The notes beneath the pieces were generated by a model, which did no database searches, had not been told where the DNA came from, and saw nothing but the letters and a program-made list of their open reading frames with translations. A stretch of DNA of 64,000 nucleotides from Eledone cirrhosa. Its lineage: Eukaryota. Shown piece after piece: positions 2,121 to 53,095 of this stretch. Made by a program: the position numbers and the translations under genes. The stretch spans positions 35,340,001 to 35,404,000 of the forward strand of contig OZ024744.1 of assembly GCA_964016885.1 (NCBI GenBank), given 5' to 3'. Positions within the stretch are counted from its first letter, which is position 1. Every line of letters begins with the position of its first letter.

Positions 2121-2186
2121 ATCTTGCTCATATAATCCATAAATTAGCATGGTCTCTATAACTAGTCTTTTTCTAATTCTAGTCTC

Positions 2187-5100
2187 TTTATATTGTGTAC
2201 TGGGTACATTTTATGGTGGCACCAGCACTACCACTTTACAGAGTGTACTGGGTACATTTTATTGTGGGACCAGCACTATCACTTCACAGAGTATACTGGG
2301 TACATTTTATTGTGGCACCAGCACTACCACTTTACAGAGTGTACTGGGTACATTTTATGGTGGCACCAGCACTACCACTTTACAGAGTGTACTGGGTACA
2401 TTTTATGGTGGCACCAGCACTACCACTTTACAGAGTGTACTGGGTACATTTTATTGTGGGACCAGCACTATCACTTCACAGAGTATACTGGGTACATTTT
2501 ATTGTGGCACCAGCACTACCACTTTACAGAGTGTACTGGGTACATTTTATGGTGGCACCAGCACTACCACTTTACAGAGTGTACTGGGTACATTTTATGG
2601 TGGCACCAGCACTACCACTTTACAGAGTGTACTGGGTACATTTTATTGTGGGACCAGCACTATCACTTCACAGAGTATACTGGGTACATTTTATTGTGGC
2701 ACCAGCACTACCACTTTACAGAGTGTACTGGGTACATTTTATGGTGGCACCAGCACTACCACTTTACAGAGTGTACTGGGTACATTTTATGGTGGCACCA
2801 GCACTACCACTTTACAGAGTGTACTGGGTACATTTTATTGTGGGACCAGCACTATCACTTCACAGAGTATACTGGGTACATTTTATTGTGGCACCAGCAC
2901 TACCACTTTACAGAGTGTACTGGGTACATTTTATGGTGGCACCAGCACTACCACTTTACAGAGTGTACTGGGTACATTTTATGGTGGCACCAGCACTACC
3001 ACTTTACAGAGTGTACTGGGTACATTTTATTGTGGGACCAGCACTATCACTTCACAGAGTATACTGGGTACATTTTATTGTGGCACCAGCACTACCACTT
3101 TACAGAGTGTACTGGGTACATTTTATGGTGGCACCAGCACTACCACTTTACAGAGAGTACTGGGTACATTTTATTGTGGGACCAACACTATCACTTTACA
3201 GAGTGTACTGGGTACATTTTATTGTGGCACCAGCACTACCACTTTACAGAGTGTACTGGATACATTTTATGGTGGCACCAGCACTACCACTTTACAGAGT
3301 GTACTGGGTACATTTTATTGTGGGACCAACACTATCACTTTACAGAGTGTACTTGGTATATTTTATGGTGGCACCAGCACTACCACTTTACAGAGTGTAC
3401 AGGGTACATTTTATTGTGGGACCAGCACTATCACTTTACAGAGTGTACTGGGTATATTTTATTGTGGAACCAACACTACCACTTTACAGAGTGTACTGAA
3501 TACATTTTATGGTGGCACCAGCACTACCACTTTACAGAGTGTACTGGGTACATTTTATGGTGGCACCAGCACTACCACTTTACAGAGTATACTGGGTACA
3601 TTTTATGGTGGCACCAGCACTACCACTTTACAGAGTGTACTGGGTACATTTTATTGTGGGACCAGCACTATCACTTCACAGAGTATACTGGGTACATTTT
3701 ATTGTGGCACCAACACTACCACTTTACAGAGTGTACTGGGTACATTTTATGGTGGCACCAGCACTACCACTTTACAGAGTGTACTGGGTACATTTTATTG
3801 TGGGACCAACACTATCACTTTACAGAGTGTACTGGGTACATTTTATTGTGGCACCAGCACTACCACTTTACAGAGTGTACTGGATACATTTTATGGTGGC
3901 ACCAGCACTACCACTTTACAGAGTGTACTGGGTACATTTTATTGTGGGACCAACACTATCACTTTACAGAGTGTACTTGGTATATTTTATGGTGGCACCA
4001 GCACTACCACTTTACAGAGTGTACAGGGTACATTTTATTGTGGGACCAGCACTATCACTTTACAGAGTGTACTGGGTATATTTTATTGTGGAACCAACAC
4101 TACCACTTTACAGAGTGTACTGAATACATTTTATGGTGGCACCAGCACTACCACTTTACAGAGTGTACTGGGTACATTTTATGGTGGCACCAGCACTACC
4201 ACTTTACAGAGTATACTGGGTACATTTTATGGTGGCACCAGCACTACCACTTTACAGAGTATACTGGGTACATTTTATGGTGGCACCAGCACTACCACTT
4301 TACAGAGTATACTGGGTACATTTTATGGTGGCACCAGCACTACCACTTTACAGAGTATACTGGGTACATTTTATTGTAGCACCAGCACTACCACTTTACA
4401 GAGTGTACTGGGTATATTTTATTGTGGGACTAGCACTACCACTTTACAGAGTGTACTGGGAACATTTCATTGTAGCACCAGCACTACCACTTTACAGAGT
4501 ATACTGGGTACATTTTATGGTGGTACCAGCACTACCACTTTACAGAGTATACTGGGTACATTTTATTGTGGCACCAGCACTACCACTTTACAGAGTATAC
4601 TGGGTACATTTTATGGTGGCACCAGCACTACCACTTTACAGAGTGTACTGGGTACATTTTATGGTGGCACCAGGACTACCACTTTACAGAGTGTACTGGG
4701 TACATTTTATTGTAGCACCAGCACTACCACTTTACAGAGTGTACTGGGTATATTTTATTGTGGGACTAGCACTACCACTTTACAGAGTGTACTGGGTACA
4801 TTTTATTGTGGGACAAGCACTACCACTTAAAAGAGTGTACTGGTACATTTTATTGTGGCACCAGCACTACCACTTTACAGAGTATACTATGTATATTTTA
4901 TTGTGGGACCAGCACTACCACTTTACAAAGTGTACCGGGTACATTTTATTGTGGAACAAACACTACCACTTTACAGAGTGTACTGTATACATTTTATGGT
5001 GGCACCAGCACTACCACTTTACAGAGTGTACTGGGAACATTTCATTGTAGCACCAGCACTACCACTTTACAGAGTGTACTGGGTACATTTTATTGTGGCA

Positions 5101-8100
5101 CCAGCACTACCACTTTACAGAGTATACTGGGTACACTTTATTGTGGCACCAGCACTACCCCTTTCCAGAGTGTACTGGATACATTTTATGGTGGCTCCAG
5201 CACTACCACCTTGCACAGTGTACTGGGTATATTTTATTGTAGCACCAGCACTACCACTTTACAGAGTGTACTGGGTACATTTAATTGTAGCACCAGCACT
5301 ACCACTTTACAAAGTGTACTGGGTACATTTTATTGTGGGACCAGTATTACCACTTTACAGAGTGTACTGGATACATTTTATTGTGGCACCAGCACTACCA
5401 CTTTACAGAGTGTACTGGGTACATTATATGGTGGCACCAGCACTACCACTTTACAGAGTGTACTGGGTACATTTTATTGTGGCACCAGCACTACCACTTT
5501 ACAGAGTGTACAGGGTACATTTTAGGGTGGCACCAGCACTACCACTTTACAGAGTGTACTAGGTACATTTTATGGTGGCACCAGCACTACCACTTTACAG
5601 AGTGTACTGGGTACATTTTATGGTGTCACCAGCACTACCACTTTGCAGAGTGTAGTATGTACATTTTATTGTGGCACCAGCACTACCACTTTACAGAGTG
5701 TACTGGGTAAATTTTATTGTGGTACCAGCACTACCACTTTACAGAGTGTACTGGGTACATTTTATTGTGGCACCAGCACTACCACTTTACAGAGTGTACT
5801 ATGTACATTTTATTGTGGCACCAGCACTACCACATTGCAGAGTATACTGGGTACGTTTTATTGTGTCACCAGTACTACCACTTTACAGTGTGTACTATGT
5901 ACATTTTATTGTGGTACCAGAACTACTACTTTACAGAGTGTACTGGGTACATTGTATTGAGTCACCAGAACTACTACTTTACAGAGTGTACTGGGTACAT
6001 ATTATTGTGGAACCAGCACTACCACTTTACAGAGTGTACTGGGTATGTTTTATTGTGGCACCAGCACTACCACTTTACAGAGTGTACTATTTACATTTTA
6101 TTGTTGTACCAGAACTACTACTTTACAGCGTGTAATGGGTACATTTTATTGCGGAACCAGCACTACCGTTTTACAGAGTGTACTGGGTACATTTTATAGT
6201 GTCACCAGCACCACCACTTTACAGCGTGTAATATGTACATTTTATTGTGGCACCAGCACTATCACTTTACAGAGTGTACTGGGTACATTTTATTGTGGGT
6301 CCAGGACTACCACCTTACAGAGTGTACTGGGTACATTTTATTGTGGCACCAGCACTACCACTTTAAAGAGTATACTGGTACATTTTATTGTGGCACCGGC
6401 ACTACCACTTTACAGAGAGTACTGGGTATATTTTATTGTGGCACCAACACTACCACTTTAGAGAGTGTACTGGGTACATTTTATTGTTGCACCAGAACCA
6501 CCACTTTGAAGAGTGTACTGGGTACATTTTATTGTGGCACCAGCACTATCATTTTACAGTGTGTATTATATACATTTTATTGTGGCACCAGCACTACCAC
6601 TTTACAGAGTGTACTGGGTACATTTTATTGTGGCACCAGCACTACCACTTTACAGAGTGTACCGGGTACATTTTATTGTGGAACCAACACTACCACTTTA
6701 CAGAGTGTACTGGATACATTTTATGGTGGCACCAGCACTACCACTTTACAGAGTGTACTGGGAACATTTCATTGTAGCACCAGCACTACCACTTTACAGA
6801 GTATACTGGGTACATTTTATCGTGGCACCAGCACTAACACTTTACAGAGTATACTGGGTACTTTTTATGGTGGCACCAGCACTACCACTTTACAGAGTAT
6901 ACTGGGTACATTTTATGGTGGCACCAGCACTATCACTTTACAGAGTGTACTGGATACATTTTATGGTGGCACCAGGACTACCACTTTACAGAGTGTACTG
7001 GGTACATTTTATTGTGGCACCAGCACTAACACTTTACAGAGTGAAATGGGTACATTTTATTGTAGCACCAGCACTACCATTTTATAGAGTGTACTGGGTA
7101 CATTTTAATGTGGCACCAGCACTACCACTTTACAGAGTGTACTGGGTACATTTTATTGTGGCACCAGCACTACCACTTTACAGAGCGTACTGGGTACATT
7201 TTATTGTGGCACCAGCACTACCACTTTACAGAGTATACTGGGTACACTTTATTGTGGCACCAGCACTACCCCTTTCCAGAGTGTACTGGGTACATTTTAT
7301 GGTGGCTCCAGCACAAGCACTTTGCACAGTGTACTGGGTACATTTTATTGTAGCACCAGCACTACCACTTTACAGAGTGTACTGGGTACATTTAATTGTA
7401 GCACCAGCACTACCACTTTACAAAGTGTACTGGGTACATTTTATTGTGGCACCAGTATCACCACTTTACAGAGTGTACTGGGTACATTTTATTGTGGCAC
7501 CAGCACTACCACTTTACAGAGTGTACAGGGTACATTTTATGGTGGCACCAGCACTACCACTTTAAAGAGTGTACTGGGTACATTTTATGGTGGCACCAGC
7601 ACTACCACTTTACAGAGTTGACTTGGTACATTTTATAGTGTCACCAGCACTACCACTTTGCAGAGTGTAGTATGTACATTTTATTGTGGCACCAGCACTA
7701 CCACTTTACAGAGTGTACTGGGTACATTTTATTGTGGCACCAGCACAACCACTTTACAGAGTCTACTATGTACATTTTATTGTGGTACCAGAACTACTAC
7801 TTTACGGCATGTACTGGGTACATTTTATTGTGGCACCAGCACTACCACTTTACAGAGTGTACTATGTACATTTTATTGTGGCACCAGCACTACCACATTG
7901 CAGAGTATACTGGGTACGTTTTATTGTGTCACCAGCACTACCACTTTACAGAGTGTATTATGTACATTTTATCGTGGTACCAGAACTACTACTTTACAGA
8001 GTATACTGGGTACATTGTATTGAGTCACCAGAACTACTACTCTACAGAGTGTACTGGGTACATTTTATTGTGGGACAAGCACTACCACTTTACAGAGTAT

Positions 8101-11100
8101 ACTGGTACATTTTATTGTGGGACCAGCACTACCACTTTGCACAGTGTACTGGGTACATTTTATTGTAGCACCAGCACTACCACTTTACAGAGTGTACTGG
8201 GAACATTTAATTGTAGCACCAGCACTACCACTTTACAAAGTGTACTGGGTACATTTTATTGTGGCACCAGTATTACCACTTTACAGAGTGTACTGGGTAC
8301 ATTTTATGGTGGCACCAGCACTACCACTTTACAGAGTGTACTGGGTACATTTTATGGTGGCACCAGCACTACCACTTTACAGAGTGTACTGGGTACATTT
8401 TATTGTGGCACCAACACTACCACTTTACAGAGTGTACAGGGTACATTTTATGGTGGCACCAGCACTACCACTTTACAGAGTGTACTGGGTACATTTTATT
8501 GTGGCACCAGCACTATCACTTTACAGTGTGTATTATATACATTTTATTGTGGCACCAGCACTACCACTTTACAGAGTGTACTGGGTACATTTTATTGTGG
8601 CACCAGCACTACCACTTTACAGAGTGTACTGGCTCCATTTTATTGTGGCACCAGCACTACCACTTTACAGAGTGTACTATGTACATTTTATTGTGGCACC
8701 AGCACTACCAAATTGCAGAGTATACTGGGTACGTTTTATTGTGTCACCAGCACTACCACTTTACAGAGTGTACTATGTACATTTTATTGTGGTACCAGAA
8801 CTACTACTTTACAGAGTGTACTGGGTACATCGTATTGAGTCACCAGAACTACTACTTTACAGAGTGTACTGGGTACATTTTATTGTGGAACCAGCACTAC
8901 CACATTACAGAGTGTACTGGGTACGTTTTATTGTGGCACCAGCACTACCACTTTACAGAGTGTACTATGTACATTTTATTGTGGTACCAGAACTACTACT
9001 TTACAGCGTGTACTGCGTACATTTTATTGCGGCACCAGCACTACCATTTTACAGAGTGTACTGGGTATATTTTATTGTGTCACCAGCACCACCACTTTAC
9101 AGCGTGTAATATGTACATTTTATTGGGGCACCAGCACTACCACTTTACAGAGTGTACTGGGTACATTTTATTGTGGGTCCAGGACTACCACCTTACAGAG
9201 TGTACTGGGTACATTTTATTGTGACACCAGCACTACCACTTTACAGAGTATACTGGTACATTTTATTGTGGCACCGGCACTACCACTTTACAGAGAGTAC
9301 TGGGTATATTTTATTGTGGCACCAACACTACCAATTTAGAGAGTGTACTGGGTACATTTTAATATGGCACCAGAACCACCACTTTGAAGAGTGTACTGGG
9401 TACATTTTATTGGGGCACCAGCACTATCACTTTACATATTATACAGGGTACATTTTATTGTGGCACCAGCACTACCACTTTACAGAGTGTACCGGGTACA
9501 TTTTATTGTGGAACCAACACTACCACTTTACAGAGTGTACTGGATACATTTTATGGTGGCACCAGCACTACCACTTTACAGAGTGTACTGGGAACATTTC
9601 ATTGTAGCACCAGCACTACCACTTTACAGAGTATACTGGGTACATTTTATCGTGGCACCAGCACTAACACTTTACAGAGTATACTGGGTACTTTTTATGG
9701 TGGCACCAGCACTACCACTTTACAGAGTATACTGGGTACATTTTATGGTGGCACCAGCACTATCACTTTACAGAGTGTACTGGATACATTTTATGGTGGC
9801 ACCAGGACTACCACTTTACAGAGTGTACTGGGTACATTTTATTGTGGCACCAGCATTAACACTTTACAGAGTGAAATGGGTACATTTTATTGTAGCACCA
9901 GCACTACCATTTTATAGAGTGTACTGGGTACATTTTAATGTGGCACCAGCACTACCACTTTACAGAGTGTACTGGGTACATTTTATTGTGGCACCAGCAC
10001 TACCACTTTACAGAGCGTACTGGGTACATTTTATTGTGGCACCAGCACTACCACTTTACAGAGTATACTGGGTACACTTTATTGTGGCACCAGCACTACC
10101 CCTTTCCAGAGTGTACTGGGTACATTTTATGGTGGCTCCAGCACAAGCACTTTGCACAGTGTACTGGGTACATTTTATTGTAGCACCAGCACTACCACTT
10201 TACAGAGTGTACTGGGTACATTTAATTGTAGCACCAGCACTACCACTTTACAAAGTGTACTGGGTACATTTTATTGTGGCACCAGTATCACCACTTTACA
10301 GAGTGTACTGGGTACATTTTATTGTGGCACCAGCACTACCACTTTAAAGAGTGTACTGGGTACATTTTATGGTGGCACCAGCACTACCACTTTACAGAGT
10401 TGACTTGGTACATTTTATAGTGTCACCAGCACTACCACTTTGCAGAGTGTAGTATGTACATTTTATTGTGGCACCAGCACTACCATTTTACAGAGTGTAC
10501 TGGGTACATTTTATTGTGGCACCAGCACAACCACTTTACAGAGTCTACTATGTACATTTTATTGTGGTACCAGAACTACTACTTCACGGCATGTACTGGG
10601 TACATTTTATTGTGGCACCAGCACTACCACTTTACAGAGTGTACTATGTACATTTTATTGTGGCACCAGCACTACCACATTGCAGAGTATACTGGGTACG
10701 TTTTATTGTGTCACCAGCACTACCACTTTACAGAGTGTATTATGTACATTTTATCGTGGTACCAGAACTACTACTTTACAGAGTATACTGGGTACATTGT
10801 ATTGAGTCACCAGAACTACTACTCTACAGAGTGTACTGGGTACATTTTATTGTGGGACAAGCACTACCACTTTACAGAGTATACTGGTACATTTTATTGT
10901 GGGACCAGCACTACCACTTTGCACAGTGTACTGGGTACATTTTATTGTAGCACCAGCACTACCACTTTACAGAGTGTACTGGGAACATTTAATTGTAGCA
11001 CCAGCACTACCACTTTACAAAGTGTACTGGGTACATTTTATTGTGGCACCAGTATTACCACTTTACAGAGTGTACTGGGTACATTTTATGGTGGCACCAG

Positions 11101-14100
11101 CACTACCACTTTACAGAGTGTACTGGGTACATTTTATGGTGGCACCAGCACTACCACTTTACAGAGTGTACTGGGTACATTTTATTGTGGCACCAACACT
11201 ACCACTTTACAGAGTGTACAGGGTACATTTTATGGTGGCACCAGCACTACCACTTTACAGAGTGTACTGGGTACATTTTATTGTGGCACCAGCACTATCA
11301 CTTTACAGTGTGTATTATATACATTTTATTGTGGCACCAGCACTACCACTTTACAGAGTGTACTGGGTACATTTTATTGTGGCACCAGCACTACCACTTT
11401 ACAGAGTGTACTGGCTCCATTTTATTGTGGCACCAGCACTACCACTTTACAGAGTGTACTATGTACATTTTATTGTGGCACCAGCACTACCAAATTGCAG
11501 AGTATACTGGGTACGTTTTATTGTGTCACCAGCACTACCACTTTACAGAGTGTACTATGTACATTTTATTGTGGTACCAGAACTACTACTTTACAGAGTG
11601 TACTGGGTACATCGTATTGAGTCACCAGAACTACTACTTTACAGAGTGTACTGGGTACATTTTATTGTGGAACCAGCACTACCACATTACAGAGTGTACT
11701 GGGTACGTTTTATTGTGGCACCAGCACTACCACTTTACAGAGTGTACTATGTACATTTTATTGTGGTACCAGAACTACTACTTTACAGCGTGTACTGCGT
11801 ACATTTTATTGCGGCACCAGCACTACCATTTTACAGAGTGTACTGGGTATATTTTATTGTGTCACCAGCACCACCACTTTACAGCGTGTAATATGTACAT
11901 TTTATTGGGGCACCAGCACTACCACTTTACAGAGTGTACTGGGTACATTTTATTGTGGGTCCAGGACTACCACCTTACAGAGTGTACTGGGTACATTTTA
12001 TTGTGACACCAGCACTACCACTTTACAGAGTATACTGGTACATTTTATTGTGGCACCGGCACTACCACTTTACAGAGAGTACTGGGTATATTTTATTGTG
12101 GCACCAACACTACCAATTTAGAGAGTGTACTGGGTACATTTTAATATGGCACCAGAACCACCACTTTGAAGAGTGTACTGGGTACATTTTATTGGGGCAC
12201 CAGCACTATCACTTTACATATTATACAGGGTACATTTTATTGTGGCACCAGCACTTCCACTTTACAGAGTGTACTGGGTACATTTTATTGTGGCACCAGC
12301 ACTACCACTTTACAGAGTGTACTGGGTACATTTTATTGTGGCACCAGCACTACCACTTTACAGAGTGTACTATGTACATTTTATTGTGGCACCAGCACTA
12401 CCACATTGCAGAGTATACTTGGTACGTTTTATTGTGTCACCATCACTACCACTTTACAGAGTGTACTATGTACATTTTATTGTGGTACCAGACCTACTAC
12501 TTTACAGAGTGTACTGGGTACATTTTATTGTGGCACCAACACTACCACTTTACAGAGTGTACAGGGTACATTTTATGGTGGCACCAGCACTACCACTTTA
12601 CAGAGTGTACTGGGTACATTTTATGGTGGCACCAGCACTGCCACTTTACAGAGTTGACTGGGTACATTTTATGGTGTCACCAGCACTACCACTTTGTAGA
12701 GTGTAGTATGTACATTTTATCGTGGCACCAGCACTACCACTTTACAGAGTGTACTGGGTACATTTTATTGTGGCACCAGCACTATCACTTTACAGTGTGT
12801 ATTATATACATTTTATTGTGGCACCAGCACTACCACTTTACAGAGTGTACTGGGTACATTTTATTGTGGCACCAGCACTACCACTTTACAGAGTGTACTG
12901 GGTCCATTTTATTGTGGCACCAGCACTACCACTTTACAGAGTGTACTATGTACATTTTATTGTGGCACCAGCACTACCACTTTGCAGAATATAGTGGGAA
13001 CATACTATTGTGGCACCAGCACTACAACTTTACAGAGTGTAGTGGGTACATTTTTTTGTGACACCAGCACTACCACTTTGCAGAGTGTCCTGGGTACATT
13101 TTATTGTGGCACCAGCACTACCACTTTGCAGAGTGTACTGGGTACATTTTATTGTGGCACCAGCACTACAACTTTGCAGAGTGTACTGGTTACATTGTAT
13201 TGTGGCACCAGCACTACCACTTTGCAGAGTATACTGGGTACGTTTTATTGTGGCACCAGCACTACCACTTTGCAGAGTGTACTAGGTACATTATATTTTG
13301 GTAACAGCAATACCACCTTGCAGAGTGTACTGGGTACATTTTATTGTGGTACAAGCACTACCGCTTTACAGAGTGTACTGGGTACATTTTATTTTGGCAC
13401 CAGCACTACCACTTTACAGAGTGTACTGGGTACATTTTATTATGGCACCAGCACTACCACTTTATAGAATATACTGTGTACATTTTATTGTGGCACCAGC
13501 ACCACTACTTTGCAGAGTGTACTGGATACATTTTATTATGGCACCAGCACTACCACTTTGCAGAGTATACTGTGTATATTTTATTGTGGCACCAGCACTA
13601 TCACTTTGCTAAATGTACTGGCTATATTTTATTATGGCACCAGCACTACTAGTTTACAGATTATACTGGGTACATTTTATTGTGGCACCAGCACTACCAC
13701 TTTACAGAGTGTACTGGGTACATTTTATGGTGGCACCAACACTAGCACTTTACAGAGTATTATGGGTACATTTTATTGTGGCACCAGCACTACCTCTTTA
13801 CAGAGTGTACTGTGTACATTTTATTGTGGTACCAGCACTACCACTTTACAGCATGTACTGGGTACATTTTATTATGGCACCAGCACTACCACTTTGCAGA
13901 GTGTACTAGGTAAATGTTATTGTGGCACCAGCACTACCATTTTGCAGACTGTACTGGGTAAATTTTATTATGGCACAAGCACTACCACTTTACAGAGTGT
14001 ACTGGGTACATTTTATTGTGGAGCCAGCACTACCACTTTGCAGAGTGTACTAGGTACATTTTATTGTGGCACCAGCAATACCTCTTTACAGATTATACTG

Positions 14101-23100: not shown

Positions 23101-26100
23101 TTATGGAATATACTGGGTACATTTTATTGTGGCACCAGCACCACCACTTTACAGAGTGTACTGGGTACATTTTATTGTGGCGCCAGCACTACCACTTTGA
23201 AGAGTGCACTAGGTACATTTTATTATGGCACCTGTACTACCACTTTGCAGAGTATACTGTGTATATTTTATTGTGGTACCAGCATTACCACTTTACAAAG
23301 TGTACTGGGTACATTTTATTGTGGGACCACCGCTACCACATTGCAGAGTGTACTGGGTACATTTTATTGTTGCAGAAGCACTACCACTTTGCAGAGTGTA
23401 CTGGGTAATATTTTATTGTGGCACCAGCACTACCACTTTGCAGAGTGTCCTGGGTACATTTTATTGTGGCACCAGCACTACCACTTTGCAGAGTGTACTG
23501 GGTACATTTTATTGTGGCACCAGCACTACAACTTTGCAGAGTGTACTGGGTACATTTCATTGTGGCACCATCACTACCACTTTGCAGATTATACTGGGTA
23601 CGTTTTATTGTGGCACCAGCACTACCACTTTGCAGAGTGTACTGGGTACATTATATCGTGGTACCAGCACTAGCACCTTGCAGAGTGTACTGGGTACATT
23701 TTATTGTGGTACAAGCACTACCACTTTACAGAGCGTACTGGGTACATTTTATAGTGGCACCAGCACTACCACTTTACAGAATGTACTGGGTACATTTTAT
23801 TGTGGCACCAGCTCTACCACTTTACAGAGTATACTGGGTACATTTTATTGTGGGACCAGTATTACCACTTTGCAGAATGTACTGGGTACATTTTATTGTG
23901 GCACCAGCAGTAACACTTTACAGAGTATACTGGGTACATTTTATTGTGGCACCAGCTCTACCACTTTACAGAGTGTACTGACTATATTTTATTATGGCAC
24001 CAGTACTACCACTTTGCAGAGTGTACTGGGTAAATTTTATTGTGGCACCAGCACTACCACTTTACAGAGTGTACTGGGTACATTTTATTGTGGCACCAGC
24101 AATACCACGTTACAGAGTGTACCGGGTACATTTTATTGAGGCATCATCACAACCACTTTACAGAGTGTACTTGGTACATTTTATTGGGGCACCAGTACTA
24201 CCACTTTTCAGAGTATACTGGGTACATTTTATGGTGGCACCAGCACTACCCCTTTGCAGAGTGTACTGGGTATAATTTATTGTGGCACCAACACTACCAC
24301 TTTGCAGAGTGTACTGGGTACATTATATCGTGGTACCAGCACTAGCACCTTGCAGAGTGTACTGGGTACATTTTATTGTGGTACAAGCACTACCACTTTA
24401 CAGAGTGTACTGGCTACATTTTATTATGGCACCAGCACTACCACTTTGCAGAGTGTACTGGGTAAATTTTATTGTGACACCAGCACTACCACTTTGCAGA
24501 GTGTACTGGGTAAATTTTATTGTGGCACCAGCAATACCACTTTACAGAGAGTACCGGGTACATTTTATTGAGGCATCAGCACTACCACTTAACAGAGTGT
24601 ACTGGGTACATTTTATTGTGGCACCAGCACTACCACTTTACAGAGTGTACTGGGTACATTTTATTGGGGCACCAGTTCTACCACTTTTCAGAGTATACTG
24701 GGTACATTTTATGGTGGCACCAGCACTACCACTTTGCAGAGTGTACTGGGTATATTTTATTGTGGCACCAACACTACCACTTTGCACAGTGTACTTGTTT
24801 TATTTTATTGGGGCACCAGCACTAGCACTTTGCAGAGTGTACGAGGTAATATTTCATTGTGGCACCAACACTACCACTTTACAGAGTGTACTGTGTAAAT
24901 TTTATTGTGGCACCAGCACTAGCACTTTGCAGAGTGTACTAGGTACATTTTATTGTGGCACCAGCACTACCACTTTACAGAGCGTACTGGGTACATTTTA
25001 TAGTGGCACCAGCACTACCACTTTACAGAATGTACTGGGTACATTTTATTGTGGCACCAGCTCTACCACTTTACAGAGTATACTGGGTACATTTTATTGT
25101 GGGACCAGTATTACCACTTTGCAGAATGTACTGGGTACATTTTATTGTGGCTCCAGCAGTAACACTTTACAGAGTATACTGGGTACATTTTATTGTGGCA
25201 CCAGCTCTACCACTTTACAGAGTGTACTGACTATATTTTATTATGGCACCAGTACTACCACTTTGCAGAGTGTACTGGGTAAATTTTATTGTGGCACCAG
25301 CACTACCACTTTACAGAGTGTACTGGGTACATTTTATTGTGGCACCAGCAATACCACGTTACAGAGTGTACCGGGTACATTTTATTGAGGCATCATCACA
25401 ACCACTTTACAGAGTGTACTTGGTACATTTTATTGGGGCACCAGTACTACCACTTTTCAGAGTATACTGGGTACATTTTATGGTGGCACCAGCACTACCC
25501 CTTTGCAGAGTGTACTGGGTATAATTTATTGTGGCACCAACACTAGCACTTTGCACAGTGTACTGGGTTTATTTTATTGGGGCACCAGTACTAGCACTTT
25601 GCAGAGTGTACTAGGTACATTTTATTGTGGCACCAGCACTACCACTTTATAGAGCGTACTGGGTACATTTTATTGTGGCACCAGCACTACCAGTTTACAG
25701 AATGTACTGGGTACATTTTATTGTGGCACCAGCTCTACCACTTTACAGAGTATACTGGGTACATTTTCTTGTGGGACCAGTACTACCACTTTGCAGAGTG
25801 TACTGGGTACATTTTATTGTGACACCAGCAGTAACACTTTGCAGAGTGTACTAGGTACATTTTATTGTGGCACCATCACTGTCACATTACACAGTGTACT
25901 GGGTACATTTTATTGTGGAACCAGCACTACTACTTTACAGTGTACTGGGTACAATTTATTGTGGCACCAGCACTACCACTTTACAAATTATAATGGGTAC
26001 ATTTTATTGGAGCACCAGCACTACCACTTTATTGAATATACTGGGTACATTTTATTGTGGCACCAGCACTACCACTTTGCAGAGTATATTGGGTACATTT

Positions 26101-26407
26101 TATTGTGGCACCAGCACTACCACTTTGCAGAGTATATTGGGTACATTTTATTTTGGCACCAGCACTACCACTTTGGAGAGTGTACTGGGTATGTTTTATT
26201 GTGGCACCAGCACTACCACTTTGCAGAGTGTACTGGGTACATTTTATTGTGGCACTAGCACTAACATTTTTCAGAGTGTACTGGGTGTATTTTATCTGTG
26301 TACAAGCACTACTGCATTTCAGTGTGTGCTGGTTGCATTTTGTTATACCACTAGCATTACCAGTTTACTAAGTGTATTAGGTGCATTTTATTGTGACACC
26401 AGTACTA
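2187..26407 (+). repeat. satellite 1: 48-bp tandem array, about 500 monomers, consensus CAGAGTGTACTGGGTACATTTTATTGTGGCACCAGCACTACCACTTTA
   Basis: Directly visible uninterrupted head-to-tail array of about 24.2 kb; occasional 47- and 49-bp monomers; most homogeneous at the left end. Confidence 0.98.
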
Positions 26408-26849: not shown

Positions 26850-27132
26850 TATAAGCCCCCACTGCAAAGTGGTTGTGATGGTGACACAACAAAAAGCACC
26901 CGGCCTACACTATAAAGTTGTCGTGTAGGTGTCACGATAAAAAGCACCCAGTACCCACTGTAAATGCGATTGGCATTAAGAAGGGCATCCAACTGTAGAA
27001 ACCAATTCGAAAGCAGTTCTATATGAGCAAACATGGTCACATGACTTGGCATTGCTCACAACAGGACAACTCATCTAACCCATGCTAGCATGGAAAAATG
27101 GACATTAAACGGTGATGATGATGATAATGATA
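26850..27132 (+). mobile_element. RTE LINE 3' UTR fragment with (GAT)n tail
   Basis: AAGAAGGGCATCCAACTGTAGAA ... AACCCATGCTAGCATGGAAAAATGGACATTAAAC-(GAT)n; reverse complement of the 3' end of the LINE at 27518-27800; carries two 48-bp motif units. Confidence 0.8.
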
Positions 27133-27517: not shown

Positions 27518-29437
27518 ATCATCATCATCATTATCATCACCATTTTACGTCCGTTCTTCCACGCTAGCATGGGTTAGACGGGTTGTCCTGTTGTGGGCAG
27601 TGTCTGGTCGGCTGACCATGCCTTGCTCATACAGGAACTGATTTGGCTTGCTTTCTACAGCTGGATGCCCTTCCTAACACCAACCTCATTTACAGTGAGT
27701 GCTGGGTGCTTTTTTGTGGCGCCTACACGTCCACTTTACAGTGTGGGCTGGGTGCTTTTTTGCCGTGGCACCTCCACGACCACCTTGCAGTGGGGGGTGT
27801 GGGGGCATATTGTTTATATGCTTCAGCTTGTACCCATGGGAGGTCGGGTACTCTGTATTACTGCATGACGCCAGATGTCACGGTCGTGTGTCATCGCCTT
27901 TGAGAGGTGTAATTGGGTAAGGTCGGCTTTTATCACCTCATCCCATGTCATCTTGGGTCTCCCCACTCCGCGGTTTCCATCGACTTCTAGTGCTCTGCAC
28001 CTTTTTATGCAGCTGTCATCCTTCATACGCATCACATGTCCATACCAACGCAACCGCCTCTCCTGCACACAGCATTTGATTCCTCTTATGCTCAGTCTCT
28101 CTCTCAATTCATTTATGCTTTGTTGTTCGCGTATATTACTATTATACATCCATCCGAGCATGCAGGCTTCGTTTCTCTCTAATCTACGTAAGTCTTCCAC
28201 CTTCAGCGCCAAAATCTCACTACCATGCAACATCGCTGTTCGGATACACGCATCATACAGTCTTTCTTTCATTTTGAGGGAGAAGCCTTTTGCAGCTAGC
28301 AGTGGTAGTAGTTCCCTAGACTTCTTCCATCCCGTTCTTACCCTAGTTATTGTACTTTCTGAACACCCACCTCCGCTGCTAATTCGGTCACCTAGGTAGC
28401 AGAAGCTGTCTACTGTTTCTACAGAGCCCTCCCAGAGATTGGTGGTACTTGTTTCCTGTGGCTGTTTGCTGCTTTCTGTCCCAGCACAGCTGCTGCATGT
28501 GAAGCCTACATTCTTAATTAAGCTTCCTGAGATCCCACTACATCTCTTGTGTACCCATTGTTTGCATTTGGGGCAGAGAATGGAGTTCCTACCTACACCT
28601 TTCCTACATACTGAGAAAGGCCATTTCCCTGAGGGGATCTGGGTTCTGTCTTCTCATCTACTTACAAGGACCTTAGTCTTTGTCATGTTGACTTTGAGAC
28701 CCTTTCTTTCTAGTCCCTGCTTCCAAGTTTGGAATTTATTCTCTAGTTCTACCATAGATTCAGCTATAAGTACGAGGTCATCAGCATACAGGAGTTCCCA
28801 TGGGCATCCGGTCTTAAACTCCTTCATTATTGCTTGCAGGCCTATGATGAACAGGAGAGGGCTAAGAACAGAGCCCTGGTGGACACAAACCTGTACGCTA
28901 AATTCCTCGCTATACTCATTGCTAATCCTAACTTTGCTGACTGCTCCCCTATACATGGCTTGTACCGCTTTCATAAGCCATTCATCTACTCCTAGTTTTC
29001 TAAGAGCCCACCAGATTACAGCACGTGGAACTCTGTCAAAGGCTTTCTCAAGATCGACGAATGCCAGGTAGAGTGGCTTACTTTTAGCTAGGTACTTTTC
29101 CTGTAACTGCCTCACAAGGAAGTGGGCATCAGTGGTGCCTCTTCCTGGTACAAACCCAAATTGCATCTCATCTAGTTTCACCCAGTCCCTAATCAACTGT
29201 GCTATAACTCTTTCTGTTACTTTCATGACCTGGTCCATCAGCTTTATACCTCTATAGTTTCCTCTATCTAGTGCATCACCTTTACCTTTGTAGCAGTTGA
29301 CAATGATGCTACTGCACCAATCTTTTGGTATGACACCTTCTAGTATTACCTGGTTAACAATACGTGTGGTTATAGTGTGACCTACAGACCCAGATGCCTT
29401 CAGCATCTCGGCAGCTATACCCGATGGACCGGTTGCT
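27518..29437 (-). mobile_element. RTE-clade LINE copy A, 5'-truncated (RT, Cys/His finger, C-terminus, 3' UTR, (GAT)n tail)
   Basis: ORF 29406-28654 has non-LTR RT motifs (YKGKGD..NYRGIKL, QFGF, FVDLEKAFDRVPR, QGSVLSPLLF, LYADDL). It continues in the same frame past one TGA to 27823 ([19 protein letters not shown]). (TA)n on both flanks. Confidence 0.93.
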
Positions 29438-29459
29438 ATATATATATATATATATATAG

Positions 29460-29541
29460 CAGAGCACTAGAAGTCAATGGAAACCGTGGAGTGGAGATGA
29501 GGTGATAAAAGCCGACCTTGCTCAATTACACCTCTCAAAGG
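29460..29541 (+). mobile_element. short inverted RTE fragment with an internal deletion
   Basis: CAGAGCACTAGAAGTCAATGGAAACCGTGGAGTGG..GATGAGGTGATAAAAGCCGACCTT..CAATTACACCTCTCAAAGG is the reverse complement of about 27897-27997, lacking about 20 nt. Confidence 0.8.
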
Positions 29542-30060
29542 CTTCCCTTCTCAGCTCAAGCTGGTGGGGCTGGACCGAGGAGACGGCAAGAGGCCAGATG
29601 GCATGACCATTTTCCCGTTCCACGGTGGCAAACCTCTCGTTTGGGATGCTACTTGCACCGACACTTTCTGCAGTAGCAACCTAGTGCAGTCTGCGACTAG
29701 CCCAGTTTCTGCTGCACGTCGGGCTGAGGAGTCCAAACTCCTCAAACACCGGTCACTCTCCGACAGGTTTGCGGTTGTACCCCTGGCAGTGGAGACTTCT
29801 GGTGTCCTCAGCCCTAGGGCTATCTCCCTATTCACCACCTTAGGCGCTGAGCTGACCAGCCGCAGGTGTGAGCCCCGTGAGTTGGAGTGGCTTTTCCAGG
29901 GTGTCTCCCTTGCCATCCTCCGGCGAAACGCCTTCTCCAGTCTGTCTTCCAGGGCTGTGAGGGGGAGGGGGCATCGTGTAACAGTCCATATTTAGGTATC
30001 CAGATTAATGGTTTTTATATACACACCACTTGTATTTATCTTCCCCTATATAAATAAATG
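29540..30060 (+). mobile_element. 3' fragment of an RLE-type (CRE-like) non-LTR retrotransposon
   Basis: GFPSQLKLVGLDRGDGKRPDGMTIFPFHGGKPLVWDATCTDT..AEESKLLKH..VPLAVETSG..WLFQGVSLAILRRNA: RPDG/WD/K PD-(D/E)xK-type endonuclease pattern typical of CRE-clade C-termini. Stop at 29995, AATAAA near 30052. Confidence 0.8.
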
Positions 30061-30077
30061 AAAGACTTGTGAGAGAA

Positions 30078-32240
30078 TTTACAGTGTGTGCTGGGTGCTT
30101 ATTGTCATGACACCTACATGACCACTTTACAGTGTGTGCTGGGTGCTTATTGTCATGACACCTACATGACCTCTTTACAGTGTGGGCTGGGTGCTTATTG
30201 TCATGACACCTACATGACCTCTTTACAGTGTGGGCTGGGTGCTTATTGTCATGACACCTACATGACCATTTTACAGTGTGGGCTGGGTGCTTATTGTCAT
30301 AACACCTACATGACCACTTTACAGTGTGGGCTGGGTGCTTATTGTCATGACACCTACATGACCACTTTACAGTGTGGGCTGGGTGCTTATTGTCATGACA
30401 CCTACATGACCACTTTACAGAGTGGGCTGGGTGCTTATTGTCATGACACCTACATGACCACTTTACAGTGTGGGCTGGGTGCTTATTGTCATGACACCTA
30501 CATGACCACTTTACAGTGTGGGCTGGGTGCTTATTGTCATGACACCTACATGACCACTTTACAGTGTGGGCTGGGTGCTTATTGTCATGACACCTACATG
30601 ACCACTTTACAGTGTGGGCTGGGTGCTTATTGTCATGACACCTACATGACCACTTTACAGAGTGGGCTGGGTGCTTATTGTCATGACACCTACATGACCA
30701 CTTTACAGTGTGGGCTGGGTGCTTATTGTCATGACACCTACATGACCACTTTACAGTGTGGGCTGGGTGCTTATTGTCATGACACCTACATGACCTCTTT
30801 ACAGTGTGTGCTGGGTGTTTATTGTCATGACACCTACATGACCACTTTACAGAGTGGGCTGGGTGCTTATTGTCATGACACCTACATGACCACTTTACAG
30901 TGTGGGCTGGGTGCTTATTGTCATAACACCTACATGACCACTTTACAGTGTGTGCTGGGTGCTTTTTGTCGTGACACCTACATGACCTCTTTACAGTGTG
31001 GGCTGGGTGCTTATTGTCATGACACCTACATGACCACTTTACAGTGTGTGCTGGGTGCTTATTGTCATAACACCTACATGACCACTTTACAGTGTGTGCT
31101 GGGTGCTTTTTGTCGTGACACCTACATGACCTCTTTACAGTGTGGGCTGGGTGCTTATTGTCATAACACCTACATGACCACCACTTTACAGAGTGGGCTG
31201 GGTGCTTATTGTCATGACACCTACATGACCACTTTACAGTGTGGGCTGGGTGCTTTTTGTCATGACACCTACATGACCACTTTACAGTGTGGGCTGGGTG
31301 CTTATTGTCATAACACCTACATGACCACTTTACAGTGTGTGCTGGGTGCTTTTTGTTGTGACACCTACATGACCTCTTTACAGTGTGGGCTGGGTGCTTA
31401 TTGTCATAACACCTACATGACCACCTCTTTACAGTGTGAACTGGGTGCTTTTTGTCGTGACACCTACATGACCTCTTTACAGTGTGGGCTGGGTGCTTAT
31501 TGTCATGACACCTACATGACCACTTTACAGTGTGTGTTGGGTGCTTTTTGTCGTGACACCTACATGACCTCTTTACAGTGTGGGCTGGGTGCTTATTGTC
31601 ATAACACCTACATGACCACCTCTTTACAGTGTGGACTGGGTGCTTTTTGTCGTGACACCTACATGACCTCTTTACAGTGTGGACTGGGTGCTTATTGTCA
31701 TGACACCTACATGACCTCTTTACAGTGTGTGCTGGGTGCGTTTTGTCGTGACACCTACATGACCACTTTACAGTGTGTGCTGGGTGCTTTTTTGTCATGA
31801 CACCTACATGACCACTTTACAGTGTGTGCTGGGTGCTTTTTGTCATGACACCTACATGACCACTTTACAGTGTGTGCTGGGTGCTTATTGTCGTGACACC
31901 TACATGACCACTTTACAGTGTGGGCTGGGTGCTTTTTGTCGTGACACCTACATGACCACTTTACAGTGTGGGCTGGGTGCTTTTTTGTCATGACACCTAC
32001 ATGACCACTTTACAGTGTGGGCTGGGTGCTTATTGTCATGACACCTACATGACCACTTTACAGTGTGGGCTGGGTGCTTATTGTCATGACACCTACATGA
32101 CCACTTTACAGTGTGGACTGGGTGCTTTTTGTCGTGACACCTACATGACCACTTTACAGTGTGGGCTGGGTGCTTTTTGTCGTGACACCTACATGACCAC
32201 TTTACAGTGTGGGCTGGGTGCTTTTGTCATGACCTCTACA
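30078..32240 (+). repeat. satellite 2: 48-bp tandem array, about 45 monomers, consensus CAGTGTGGGCTGGGTGCTTATTGTCATGACACCTACATGACCACTTTA
   Basis: Directly visible; a few 51- and 49-bp monomers in the right half. Confidence 0.98.
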
Positions 32241-32269
32241 TCGATGGAGGTAGAGTTGGGAAGTGGTGG

Positions 32270-33320
32270 TGGTGGAGTAAATGTTGGGAAACATTCAACA
32301 GTGATTGCACCACAGACTGACCCTGGGTGCCATGTGAACACAGATATACACGCAAAAGTACACATGCACACCCTAAGTGAGAGCCATGGAGTGTGTATGT
32401 TGGTGGTATGTGATGGCATGCATATGCATATGTGTGTATGCATGTATGCATCAGAATGTGCAGGGGAGTGGAAATGGTGATATGATGACCCTGGATGCAG
32501 ATGTCTGCATATATGATACAACCATATGTGTGTGTGTGCAGATTGTGAGACATGGAAACTTACATCTGTGTGCAGTGGGACGGATGGGACTGATAGGGAG
32601 GATATGTATGTGTGTGAATAGGAATTTGAGGGTTAGGTGTCTACAGAGATATATATGTGTGTGTTGGGTGGTGTAAACGGGTGTTGTGAATGTTAGTGTG
32701 TATTGTGTCGTGGCTTGAGACATGTGTGTGTGTGTGCATGTGCTTGAGTATGAGAGAAAGGATAAAGGGAGGTTATGGAAACTCTGGGCGAGAATTGAGT
32801 TCATTCGGGAAAGTAATGTCAAGGTGAAAATGAAGTTCTGCTCAGTCCTGTTTCAAGAAGCTGGGGATCTGTGATGTAAAATGTTGCTTGAGACAGAAAG
32901 GTGTTTAGTAGAGTGGTTGGGGAATGGAATTGATGGACAACAGGGGTGTCTTTTCCAAGTCATATGTCCCTCAGGTGTTCTGAAAATCAGTCTGTCAGAT
33001 GGTGGCTTGTTTGTCTGATGTATATGAACCCACAAAGGGAAAATGGTGGGCAAAGACAATGATGGTAGAAGTGAAGGTGAAGGAGTGGTGAAGGCAAAAA
33101 AGAATGGTTTGTACCTGTTGGGATAGTGAGTTTGCTTATGTTGGGACAGGTACTATAGCAGGGATGAGAGCAGAGATGAGAGTCAGTTGGAGTCCTTGGG
33201 AAGGAAGAGAAGGAACTATATACAAGAAGGTCACAAAGATTATGGCTGTGCTGAAAGGGAGTGATGGGTGGGTTAGGAAAGAATTGAGAGGTGACAGGGT
33301 CAGAAACTAGTGTTTGGAAG
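32270..33320 (-). mobile_element. degenerate Penelope-like element 3' remnant (GIY-YIG endonuclease region plus probable 3' UTR)
   Basis: Minus-strand translation SDPVTSQFFPNPPITPFQHSHNLCDLLV..HLCSHPCYSTCP..SLCGFIYIRQTSHHLTD*FSEHLRDI..DTPV matches the pattern P-P..F-R..NL.D.LV / CxxxxCxxC / CxxCxxxYIGxT..L..RF.EH of Penelope endonucleases, with stops and frameshifts. The 3' boundary is approximate. Confidence 0.7.
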
Positions 33321-33727
33321 CTGATGACGATGATTATGATGTTGATGATGATGATGACAACGATGATGTTGATGATGATGCTGATGATGACGATAATTAT
33401 GATGTTGATGATGACGATGATGATGATGACAACAATGACGACAACAACGACGATAACAACAATGATGGTGATGATGATGATGACAATGATGACGATGATG
33501 ATGATGATGACAATGACGATGATGATGATGGTGATGATGATGATAGTGATGACAATGATGATGGTGGTGATGATGATGACAATGACGACAATGATGATGG
33601 TGATGATGATGATGATGATGACAATGACGACAATGATGATGATGGTGATGATGATGATGACAATGACGACAATGATGATGGTGATGATGATGACAATGAT
33701 GACAATGATGATGATGATGATGATGGT
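33321..33727. repeat. compound (GAT/GAC/AAT)n trinucleotide tract
   Basis: Directly visible. Confidence 0.95.
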
Positions 33728-33967
33728 GTTACTTGATGAGCATTCCACTGTTCAATCAAGTGAACTAACTGTCTCTGTTAAATTAAAGTGGCCAAGCATT
33801 CCACAGATCAGTAGACATTTGAATTACAGGTACAGTCCTACCAATAAACTTCACACACTTTCCATTCACTTGAGGCTATGGTAAAATAAAGATAATTGAT
33901 AAAGATGCCAAGACTGAAGAAATTGAAGGGGGGCCTAGATTATATATATATGTATATATATGCATAT

Positions 33968-36578
33968 ATCATCATCATCATCATCAACGTTTAACGTCCG
34001 TGTTCCACGCTTGCATGGGTTTGGACGGGGGTAGTCCCACTTGAGGCAAGAGTGATTGTCTTGCTCGCATAGGACTGTCTGGCAGGTTTTCTACAGTTGG
34101 ATGCCCTTCCTAACACCAACCACATTTACAGTGTGGGTCTGGGAGGTTTTTACCGTGTTGCCTACACGGCCACATTACAGCGTGGACTGTGTTTTTTTTG
34201 TCGTGACACCTACACGATCTCATTTGTTTCGGCCTGGATGGTGTGGCACCAACATAACTTTACATAGAACGGGGTGGTGTGGATGGGATGGGGGTGGTGG
34301 TGGTGGGAGGGGGGGGGGGGTATTTTGTTAGAGATGCCTACTGGCTGTAGTAGGTTTTACTATGTATTTAGGTAAGGCGGGTCTTCTCTGTTACTGAGTA
34401 CCGCCAAAGGTCTCGGTCCAGTGACATTGTCTTGGAGAGGTGTAAGTGTGTGAGGTCGGAGTTTATCAGCTCGTCCCAGGTTTTTCTAGGTCTGCCTATT
34501 CCGTGGCTACCGTCTATCTTTATTGCCCTGCACTTTGTTATACAGCTATCGACTTTCATGCGCATCACGTGTCCATACCAACGTAGCCTTCTCTCGAGTA
34601 AACAACATCTGATCCCTCTTATTTCTAATTTTTTCCTTAGTTCGTTTATGCTTTGTCGTTCACGTATATTACTGTTACACATCCAGCGGAGCATGCAAGC
34701 TTCGTTCCTCTCTAGTCTGCGTATATCCTCTGCACACAATGCCCAGGTCTCACTGCCATGCAACATTGCTGTTCGTATGCAGGCATCGTACAACCTGCCT
34801 TTCATTTTTAGGGAGAACCCTTTAGCAGCTAATAGTGGTATAAGCTCTCTGAACTTTTTCTAACCAGTTCTGACTCTAGCTACTGTACTTTCAGAGCACC
34901 CTCCCCCACTGTTGATTTTATCACCCAGGTAACGGAAGCTGTCCACTATTTCTATAGAACCCTCTGCGCAATTGAAAGAGCTAGTATTTTGTGGGCACTT
35001 GCTGCTACTTATTGCACCAGATACCTGGCCACATGTAAAATCTATGTTCTTAGTTAGCTTACCTGTGATCCCACTACATCTTTTATGCACCCATACTTTG
35101 CATTTAGGACATAAAATGGAGTTTCTACCTACGCCTTTCCTACACACCGAGCACGACCATTTCCCAGAAGGGACCGCCGCTTTATTTTCTTTCCTACAAA
35201 CTAGAACTTTAGTCTTAGCCAGGTTAATTTTAAGTCCTTTTGATTCTAGGCCGTGCTTCCATGTTTGGAATTTCTTCTCTAGCTCGACCATTGATTCCGC
35301 TATGAGTGTCAGGTCGTCTGCGTATAGGAGTTCCCATGGGCAGCCGGTCTTGAACTCCTCTGTTATAGCCTGAAGGGCAATAATAAATAGTAGGGGGCTG
35401 AGAACAGAGCCCTGATGGACGCCAACTTTTACGCTAAACTCTTCACTATATTCGTTGTTAATTCTAACCTTGCTGACTGTTTCTTTATACATGGCTTGTA
35501 TAGCTCTCACAAGCCATTCGTCAACGCCTAGTTTTCTAAGAGCCCACCAGATAATGGAGCGGGGGACTCTGTCGAAGGCTTTCTCCAAGTCGACAAAAGC
35601 TAAGTAGAGGGGTTTACCTTTAGCTAGGTACTTCTCCTGTAGTTGTCGTACAATGAAAAGAGCGTCTGTGGTACTTTTGCCTGACACAAACCCGAACTGC
35701 ATTTCATCTAGGTCAATTCTCTCTCTGATTAGTTGTGCTATTACTTTTTCCGTGACCTTCATGACCTGGTCGATTAATTTAATGCCTCTATAGTTACTCC
35801 TATCTAGGGCGTCTCCTTTACCCTTATAACAGTTAACGATGATGCTGCTATGCCAGTCCTTCGGAACAACCCCATTCTGTACGACTTGGTTAACTATGCG
35901 GGTGACCATGGTGTGTCCCACCGTGCCAGATGCCTTCAGCATCTCAGCAACTATTTCCGAAGGCCCAGCCGCCTTACCCGTCTTCATATCCTTGATTGCC
36001 TTACTTATTATACTCCCCTCGACTAACACTGCTGGTCCCTCTATTGGGTGGATATGGGGGAGACTGTCTTTCTCCCATTTATTCTCCTCATTTAGTAGCC
36101 TTCCATAGTGACACTTCCAAGCTACCTTCTTATCAGCGTCGGTGATGGCAAGTATGCCATCATCGTTAAGTACACACTTCTCCCCGACAATATCACGGTT
36201 TTCCTTGACGCATTGCCTAGCAATCCTGAACACCTCACGTTTTTGGTCCTCGCGTTGTAGAACATGCTTGAACTTTCTTTCCTCAGCTTCCCTTCTTACG
36301 AAGTACACTTGTCTCCTAGCTTCCCTCCTGGCCACTTGATAGTCTTCTCTACTTCCCCCATCTCGCCATATTTTCCAAGCCTGCTCTTTGGCCTTGATTG
36401 ACTCCACCTTACTGTTCCACCACCATGTTACTCTCCTCCTGCCTACAGGCCTGCTCCAGCCACAGACTTCGTCTGTCGCCATCAGCAGGTTTGCTTTCAG
36501 AAATTCCCACTGTCCCTCTATATTGTCCAACTCTAAATGTTCTTCCTTACTGTCGAAAGCATCAAGTAATATGCTTTG
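33968..36578 (-). mobile_element. RTE-clade LINE copy B, 5'-truncated (linker, RT, Cys/His finger, C-terminus, 3' UTR, (GAT)n tail)
   Basis: ORF 36530-34860 (TWWWN, RT motifs including GVHQGSVLSPLLF and LYADDL) continues in frame past one TAG (W codon in copy A) to 34368. (TA)n on both flanks. Confidence 0.95.
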
Positions 36579-36668
36579 ATATATATATATAACAAAGAAT
36601 TATGGTAAGGAACCAGATGGACCATAACACACCAGAGTACTCAATACTTAGGGTAGTAGAGTGAGAAA

Positions 36669-36785
36669 TAGGAAAAAGTATGACCTCGACGGCAGAGCTC
36701 AAGCCATTTCGACGGCTATTTCTGGAATTTAGTCCAGAAATAGCCGTCGAAACGTCTTGAGCTTTGCCGTCGGGGTCATACTTTT

Positions 36786-36790
<5 letters not shown>
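36669..36790. repeat. long near-perfect inverted repeat (58-bp arms, 6-nt loop)
   Basis: Arm 36669-36726 versus the reverse complement of 36733-36790: 5 differences, loop ATTTAG. Confidence 0.9.
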
Positions 36791-36816
<26 letters not shown>

Positions 36817-36832
36817 ATCTAGGCCCCCTTCA

Positions 36833-36869
<37 letters not shown>

Positions 36870-36874
36870 GATAC

Positions 36875-36923
<49 letters not shown>

Positions 36924-36952
36924 CACACATATATATATATACACACACACAT

Positions 36953-37120
36953 ATCATTTCATTTCATTTTATGTCCGCTTTTTCCTTGCTTGCAAGGGTG
37001 GGATGGGAACTGATTCTGGGTCGATTTCTACAGCTGGATGCCCTTCCTAACACCAACCTCATTTACAGTGAGTGCTGGGTTTTTTGTTGCCATGGCACCT
37101 CCACGACCACTTTGCAGTGG
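36953..37120 (-). mobile_element. RTE 3' UTR fragment carrying one 48-bp motif
   Basis: TTTCTACAGCTGGATGCCCTTCCTAACACCAACCTCATTTACAGTGAGTGCTGGG is identical to copy A around 27652-27706. Confidence 0.75.
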
Positions 37121-37139
37121 AATGATAGTGACCCCAGTC

Positions 37140-51059: not shown

Positions 51060-53095
<2,036 letters not shown>

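Follow-up and report, generated by a model that had tools for sequence, protein, structure and literature searches.

Satellites born from retroelement 3' untranslated regions (3' UTRs) are already known. Nine of the 11 Lathyrus satellites derive from 3'-UTR repeats of Ogre elements (PMC7004042; this and the other papers are cited for the parts of their text that were available), and PisTR-A of pea is an Ogre/Tat 3'-UTR-derived satellite, as cited in PMC9659126. Satellites from the ends of retrotransposons without long terminal repeats (non-LTR) include the cetacean common satellite (L1 3' end), chicken HinfI (CR1) and Drosophila 18HT (HeT-A/TART) (PMC9659126). Here, we analysed a window of 64,000 nt of Eledone cirrhosa (OZ024744.1, 35,340,001 to 35,404,000; genome of 3.0 Gb in 1796 contigs), which holds two 48-bp satellites and copies of an RTE-like long interspersed nuclear element (LINE) with related 48-bp units in its 3' UTR. 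We consider it probable that segments of this LINE's 3' tail, copied in tandem, make up the arrays, and that these grew in place after insertion from scattered seeds of two or a few units.

The system acts like Ogre/Tat in several respects. As described for Lathyrus sativus (PMC7004042), short tandem repeats of a 3' UTR are dispersed by the element and occasionally form long arrays, and several satellites come out of one element family. The monomers are homologous to tandem units in the element 3' UTR, and arrays of all lengths are still attached to the element. In contrast to Ogre/Tat, which is an LTR retrotransposon, the host here is a non-LTR element, the seeds are 2-3 units instead of hypervariable arrays, satellite types follow successive element lineages, a short interspersed nuclear element (SINE) shares the seed, and the founding insertions of arrays of 188 and 304 kb are readable. 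In the L1, CR1 and HeT-A cases the monomer likewise shows homology to the 3' part of a non-LTR element, but in the text available they are described as single satellite families, whereas here many independent births, probably in place, are spread over dispersed loci and every intermediate size is seen. No prior description was found in the literature searched; Repbase and Dfam were outside its scope, and a library entry may exist.

The LINE tail module and the arrays behind it

Satellite 1 occupies 2195-26407 with 504.8 copies (87% matches, Tandem Repeats Finder, TRF) and satellite 2 occupies 30078-32241 with 44.9 copies (93% matches), in line with the roughly 500 and 45 copies given in the original prediction, which had derived both from a module in the LINE 3' UTR. 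This derivation was borne out by local alignment of monomers to element units: in seven of eight comparisons none of 2000 shuffles scored as high, and the weak one was satellite 2 against the unit at 58955 (64 of 2000 shuffles as high). As had been proposed, satellite 2 is nearest to the young LINE unit (identity 41/50, versus 36/50 for satellite 1), and satellite 1 goes with the old remnant at 58.95 kb (35/48, versus 24/48 for satellite 2). All the related units previously listed in the window were recovered. A unit hidden Markov model (HMM) found two units at 27689-27783, two at 34125-34221, one at 37062-37110 and one at 58254-58297, together with two each, reversed, at 26869-26964 and 43893-43990; it passed over the unit at 58955-59000, which blastn matched with satellite 1 (E 2.4e-6). 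Most of these units do lie in LINE copies, but the one at 37062 is followed by a SINE body with a tRNA head and not by a LINE body.

The LINE pieces in the window encode reverse transcriptase (RT) and a PHD finger (Pfam). An RT search of the genome gave 149,535 candidates; all 117 that were scored were 99-100% identical, many with frames of more than 1000 aa. In a full element (L279), the only open reading frame (ORF) of at least 200 aa measures 1098 aa from stop to stop and contains Exo_endo_phos, RVT_1 and PHD. It ends at 5564 and is followed by two 48-bp units at 5657-5752, a 139-bp tail and (GAT)n, giving a 3' UTR of ~330 nt. On its sequence, the element fits an RTE-like LINE: a single ORF combines apurinic/apyrimidinic endonuclease and RT, and short tandem repeats, (GAT)n, replace poly(A) at the 3' end. 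Its C-terminal motifs, too, we take to be RTE-like. The ~330-nt 3' UTR departs from the extremely short ones of lepidopteran RTEs; that of octopus RTE-2_OV is reported at ~600 nt (PMC9115989), so 3' UTR length varies within the clade. RTE-clade LINEs (PMC2887409, PMC9115989) share with the present element an ORF of ~1100 aa, endonuclease and RT, a zinc-binding domain and a microsatellite 3' end. In RTE-2_OV, however, the 3' UTR is described as mostly microsatellite and the finger as being of the C2H2 type (PMC9115989), whereas here the 330-nt 3' UTR holds the module and a PHD-type finger follows the RT. The by-products known for RTE elements are microsatellites, whereas here they are satellites of 48-112 bp. 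RTE-BovB has been reported as expanded in cephalopods (PMC10294476).

The element is abundant, with a 23-bp tail word occurring exactly 107,413 times genome-wide. Two diverged units were present in 29/29 best-matching young copies of subfamily A, a set biased by a query that contained units, and in 29/29 best-matching copies of subfamily B, found through protein. The two units are identical at 40/50 and 33/50 positions in these young subfamilies.

The same tail is carried by a SINE, whose full copy (L252:8723-9055, ~330 bp) has a tRNA-like head, a single unit and a tail of reduced length. The tRNA-like head, the LINE-shared tail and the lack of an ORF place it, as judged from sequence, among tRNA-derived SINEs, although the head scores 24 bits (E 0.011) against Rfam tRNA, under the gathering cut-off of 29. 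The segment beside the unit may resemble the conserved central domain of the Nin/Deu-domain SINE superfamily. The octopus OR/OK and Ceph-SINE elements (PMC5804259, PMC5786205) have a similar layout of tRNA-like head, body and LINE-derived (GAT)n tail, as compared by description. The tail motif was not found in literature full text or in four supplement files of PMC4758252. Around L109:6444, a 127-bp tandem duplication spans SINE tail, unit and body.

We then turned to arrays across the genome. Searches with the two satellites returned 975 and 1343 candidate places, of which 39 each were scored; 60 stretches around most scored arrays make up the array set, chosen for likeness to the window satellites, where some loci contribute more than one array and three of the long arrays are entered under each of their two ends. 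To detect tails, we derived a profile first from five window copies without arrays, then from 40 tails of an even sample (79 evenly spaced 10-kb stretches, 790 kb); it had no match in reversed sequence. Among 68 arrays of at least 10 units in the array set, the proximal flank was visible for 58. A LINE tail stood ahead of the first unit in 34 of these 58 (within 1 bp in 22; 0.19 expected), and at the distal, wrong end in 2 of 61. An old-tail profile, which had no match of at least 0 bits in 24 reversed flanks, added three clear cases (L138, L149, L140) and, weakly, satellite 1 (10.2 bits). In a second set, drawn from exact-pattern matches on C1, the proximal end could be seen in nine 48-bp arrays, and a tail preceded eight of them.

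The even sample contained 53 unit clusters with 108 units, and 47 of the clusters lay behind a tail. Most were small: 29 had one unit, 14 had two and five had three, followed by one cluster of four, two of six and two of 10. Arrays joined to element sequence span 1 to ~3900 units. From 56 tails in 790 kb we estimate ~200,000 seeded insertions genome-wide, with some thousands of arrays (estimate 900-27,000); unit sequence makes up ~0.6% of the sampled DNA. A 34-bp array of 14 copies (L252:9432-9900) begins at the identical boundary word directly behind a tail.

Probable birth, growth and succession of the satellites

A tree of 99 of 159 tails (shorter ones omitted; 152 columns, 200 bootstrap trees) indicated many origins. 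The array label needs 19 changes on this tree, at least seven of them forced by well-supported branches, and arrays formed one clade in 0/200 bootstrap trees. Array-bearing tails are scattered among one- to three-unit tails of equal age. They are also older, with a neighbour distance of 0.157 versus 0.039. Arrays of the old (S1) unit type cluster on the oldest tails and those of the younger (S2) type on middle-aged ones, and the two youngest tail clades (17 and 22 rows) have no 48-bp array. The 48-bp arrays thus occupy older insertions, and the youngest lineage seeds another satellite, of 111/112 bp, so that three generations can be recognized: an S1 48-mer, an S2 48-mer and a 111/112-mer.

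Within arrays, monomers resemble each other more than between arrays (distances 0.080 versus 0.128 and 0.083 versus 0.182). In 25 of 26 arrays there were more shared variants than independent mutation would yield, and in 18 of 26 the monomer spread was below the age of the tail (Wilcoxon p 0.001; L103, L118 and L128, being second ends, were excluded). Dimers and private variants were evident when arrays were printed unit by unit, and an offset scan of satellite 1 revealed a 2275-bp block recurring at a 58-unit offset with 98.7% identity. Private variants, dimers, block duplications and within-array likeness together argue for expansion at the DNA level. In one array (L137:3064-4272), S2-type units beside the tail give way to S1-type units distally.

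The youngest lineage carries a second tail duplication, 112 bp long, which joins 54 bp of tail to one unit and is bounded on both sides by the 7-bp word GGACTGT. Its exact junction occurs 9,958 times, mostly single and dispersed among the matches listed, compared with 28,840 for the plain form. Inside young elements, 112-bp arrays of 5, 5, 6, 12 and 16 copies were found (96-99%); a telomere-like hexamer run, (CCCTAA)n, has expanded within the LINE tail directly ahead of a 16-unit array (L305:1941-2030). Both ends and four inner samples were read for two giant arrays. At C23:29,624,216-29,927,745 (L307-L312), a 111-bp array of 303,529 bp starts in a tail 95.5% identical to the subfamily B LINE of the window; an unrelated 54-bp satellite follows it (L312, L313). 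The 48-bp array at C1:2,295,292-2,483,153, whose inner samples were of 4 kb, measures 187,861 bp, and a tail scoring 101 bits precedes its first unit. Further arrays of the 111-bp unit lie on C20 (L315-L319), at least 110 kb at 3.255-3.365 Mb and 12 kb at 5.304-5.316 Mb, and one of them begins at an assembly gap. Long arrays of Ogre-type satellites gather at (peri)centromeres; here, three giant arrays are within 1-5 Mb of contig ends, and one adjoins another satellite.

The evidence supports the view that the LINE-tail module has given rise to satellites repeatedly, and in that direction. Both points had been part of the original prediction, and repeated seeding stood; its notion of a module varying in copy number did not hold for the youngest full elements, which have exactly two units in 58/58 cases. 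The opposite direction, capture of an older free satellite by the LINE tail, is barely credible and is largely refuted. Tail-less arrays exist, satellite 2 included, and the contig depth summed over the unit junction is high in organism C (~2.7e5, versus 3e3 in organism E, at similar tail depth; L136:2371-2406), which is a hint of capture at most and also hints that array load differs between species. Against this stand one-unit elements: in one study, 126 and 115 contigs of organisms C and E run from the tail through one S1-type unit into the same unique sequence, and old elements of this genome likewise continue from one unit into unique sequence. Tail and units are also present in organisms B, C and D. 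Moreover, unit type tracks tail age, the 111-bp satellite includes 54 bp of conserved tail, and CpG sites are kept in element units and lost in arrays: of 180 element monomers, 113 and 114 keep CG at the two sites, compared with 336 and 225 of 2099 S2 array monomers, a set that leans towards the query. At each site, the genome as a whole has CG as well as both decay products, with counts of TG 41,530, CG 9,585 and CA 8,287 at site 41 and CG 39,078, TG 36,899 and CA 15,586 at site 28. A palindrome created by CpG decay was considered as a driver of expansion and rejected, the palindromic variant being the rarer one genome-wide (15,586 versus 36,899). In restriction-site-associated DNA (RAD) reads from a separate study with the same species label, there were joints skipping one unit (3700 reads, 35 starts) and joints stepping back 48 (18 starts); variation in unit number is therefore no assembly artefact.

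Two further explanations retain the direction from LINE to satellite and place array growth elsewhere. Arrays could arise at insertion, the RT re-copying a 48- or 112-nt stretch of template many times before falling off. Copying begins at the 3' end, 90-150 nt from the repeats, 53 of 61 arrays end in non-LINE sequence as in 5' truncation, the 34-bp array starts at the same boundary, and microsatellites at RTE 3' ends have been ascribed to slippage (PMC2887409). Such stuttering is nevertheless quite improbable, given that array-private variants, dimers and long block duplications are common to monomers, that young copies have two units in 58/58 cases, that the 48-bp arrays sit on older tails, and that 190-300 kb exceeds one cDNA. 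Alternatively, middle-aged masters may have borne long arrays of ~10-30 units that were copied by retrotransposition, truncated inside the array and remodelled later. The S2 consensus is alike across loci (26 distinct among 37), CpG decay is one-sided, the L137 array combines both unit types, and the 112-bp duplication was plainly borne by a master, as its mostly single, dispersed junctions indicate. However, array tails interleave with same-age tails of one to three units, clusters of at least four units make up only 5/53 in the even sample, and compared arrays showed no unit-by-unit match by eye. Inheritance from array-bearing masters is an unlikely account, and it may add to growth in place.

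Several observations weigh against growth in place from a LINE tail. About 20 of 58 arrays have no tail, satellite 2 among them, and with two young bodies as test, LINE body was found beyond the distal end in only 8 of 61. The first array set was selected by likeness to the window satellites and is biased accordingly in monomer type and CpG state. In the 152-column tail tree, support is poor for 41 of 88 inner branches, and masters of the middle-aged subfamilies were not found. TG exceeds CA five to one at site 41 and ~2.4 to one at site 28, an excess that plain decay does not predict and that may stem from a few giant arrays. Finally, the 111-bp arrays of C20 match that of C23 in variants and frequencies, so part of the arrays owe their position to spread or misplacement and not to a fresh LINE insertion; the C20 arrays may reflect spread of the satellite or mis-scaffolding.

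Growth in place from seeds, which we favour, would proceed as follows. A master element would duplicate a tail segment at short microhomology (ACCAC-like words bound the 48-bp unit), either through a template switch or at the DNA level. Retrotransposition evidently scattered the duplicated tails over tens of thousands of LINE and SINE copies. A few percent of insertions then appear to expand, and a few to reach 190-300 kb, each array fixing dimers, duplicated blocks and variants private to it; the growth itself would be driven by replication slippage and unequal exchange. As the units of the master diverge, seeding with that unit would fade, until a new duplication founds a new satellite.

Neighbouring features of the window

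An intact tail is missing from the flanks of both window arrays. Ahead of satellite 1 (2195..26407, + strand, ~505 x 48 bp, S1 type; TRF and unit HMM), a weak remnant of an old-type element tail (2120..2165, +; old-tail HMM 10.2 bits, model 77-125) stands in the correct order. A CAT-rich microsatellite at 952..2100 (+; TRF and sequence) is, from its order and orientation, likely to be the (CAT)n terminus, in expanded form, of the old insertion that contains satellite 1, and the array terminates in the manner of a one-unit old element. Satellite 2 (30078..32241, +, 45 x 48 bp, S2 type) has no LINE tail at either end. To its left is an unrelated dispersed repeat (29540..30030, +; 5688 candidates, ~88%), with unit or tail alongside in 0/9 relatives, and to its right an old, unrelated dispersed repeat (32242..33320, no strand assigned), with a unit in 0/7 relatives. 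Because these relatives lack units, a reading of the flanks as a long LINE UTR was rejected. We take the translation of the left repeat to resemble the restriction-like endonuclease of an R2/CRE-type LINE; Pfam gave no match in 29501-29995, and an Rfam scan of 26400-38000 gave none.

At 26855..27131 (+; unit HMM) there is a LINE tail, 5'-truncated, that carries two units (26869-26964) and ends in (GAT)n. The young subfamily A copy (27520..29436, -) consists of (CAT)n, tail (27542-27688), units (27689-27783) and an RT and PHD coding part; at its 5' junction lies an inverted short piece of the LINE's own C-terminal region (29460-29530). A young subfamily B copy (33970..36560, -) has a tail, two diverged units (34125-34221) and an RT and PHD coding part, and a second, 5'-truncated subfamily B copy (43530..44150, +) has two units (43893-43990). 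Young copies are bounded by (TA)n runs (27493-27519, 29436-29459, 33940-33970 and 36570-36590); since the copies start and finish in (TA)n, a preference for TA microsatellites as targets is suggested. The remaining units belong to a SINE remnant with a LINE-type tail (36955..37215, -; unit 37062-37110), an old one-unit element (58010..58330, -; unit 58254-58297) and a decayed old-type unit (58955..59000, -; blastn). In addition, TRF identified a (TA)n run of 1.7 kb (51384-53095), a 14-bp minisatellite (57462-57642, 12.9 copies) and a 39-bp minisatellite (59504-59754, 6.4 copies, 96%).

Possible host function and meaning of the arrays

The arrays are most likely passive by-products. That the host keeps them for a function, as a small-RNA source against the LINE tail or as centromeric or heterochromatic sequence, is unlikely. 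For array transcripts, the original prediction had raised a possible role as silencing source or decoy. In its favour, the 111-bp unit contains the abundant tail segment (107,413 exact places), giant arrays lie near contig ends and in one case beside another satellite, and in the available text of PMC9476566 satellites are the sole repeat class with raised methylation in Octopus bimaculoides. Neutral growth, however, fits small arrays that number in the thousands and represent several unit types, and the units fold no better than shuffles: DNA folds gave z of -0.03 to -1.71, and an RNA hairpin as a recognition signal in unit or tail found no support in 12 segments (z 0.13 to -1.70). In a speculative extension with only a small chance of being right, one LINE lineage would act as a serial satellite factory: with every duplication of a tail piece beside the priming end, its master would scatter seeds by the thousand, and chromosome ends or centromeres would raise a few of them to arrays of 100-300 kb that function as centromeric DNA or supply small RNAs against the most conserved segment of the element itself. 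If true, this feedback could drive the turnover of LINE subfamilies.

Retroelement 3' UTRs were known as sources of satellites; here, a system that acts like Ogre has a non-LTR host, shares its seed with a SINE, produces unit types in series and leaves the founders of giant arrays readable. The birth of a satellite from a tandem seed is usually inferred from its end products, whereas here the seeds are datable through their tails. Two giant arrays retain the founding insertion, and the rate of expansion is measurable against insertion age, seed identity and chromosomal position, making such insertions the natural experiment called for in PMC7004042. For annotation, these arrays are LINE by-products. 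Together they offer a rare chance to follow the repeated birth of satellite DNA, to an extent exceeding what the window hinted at, and a useful test bed for it.

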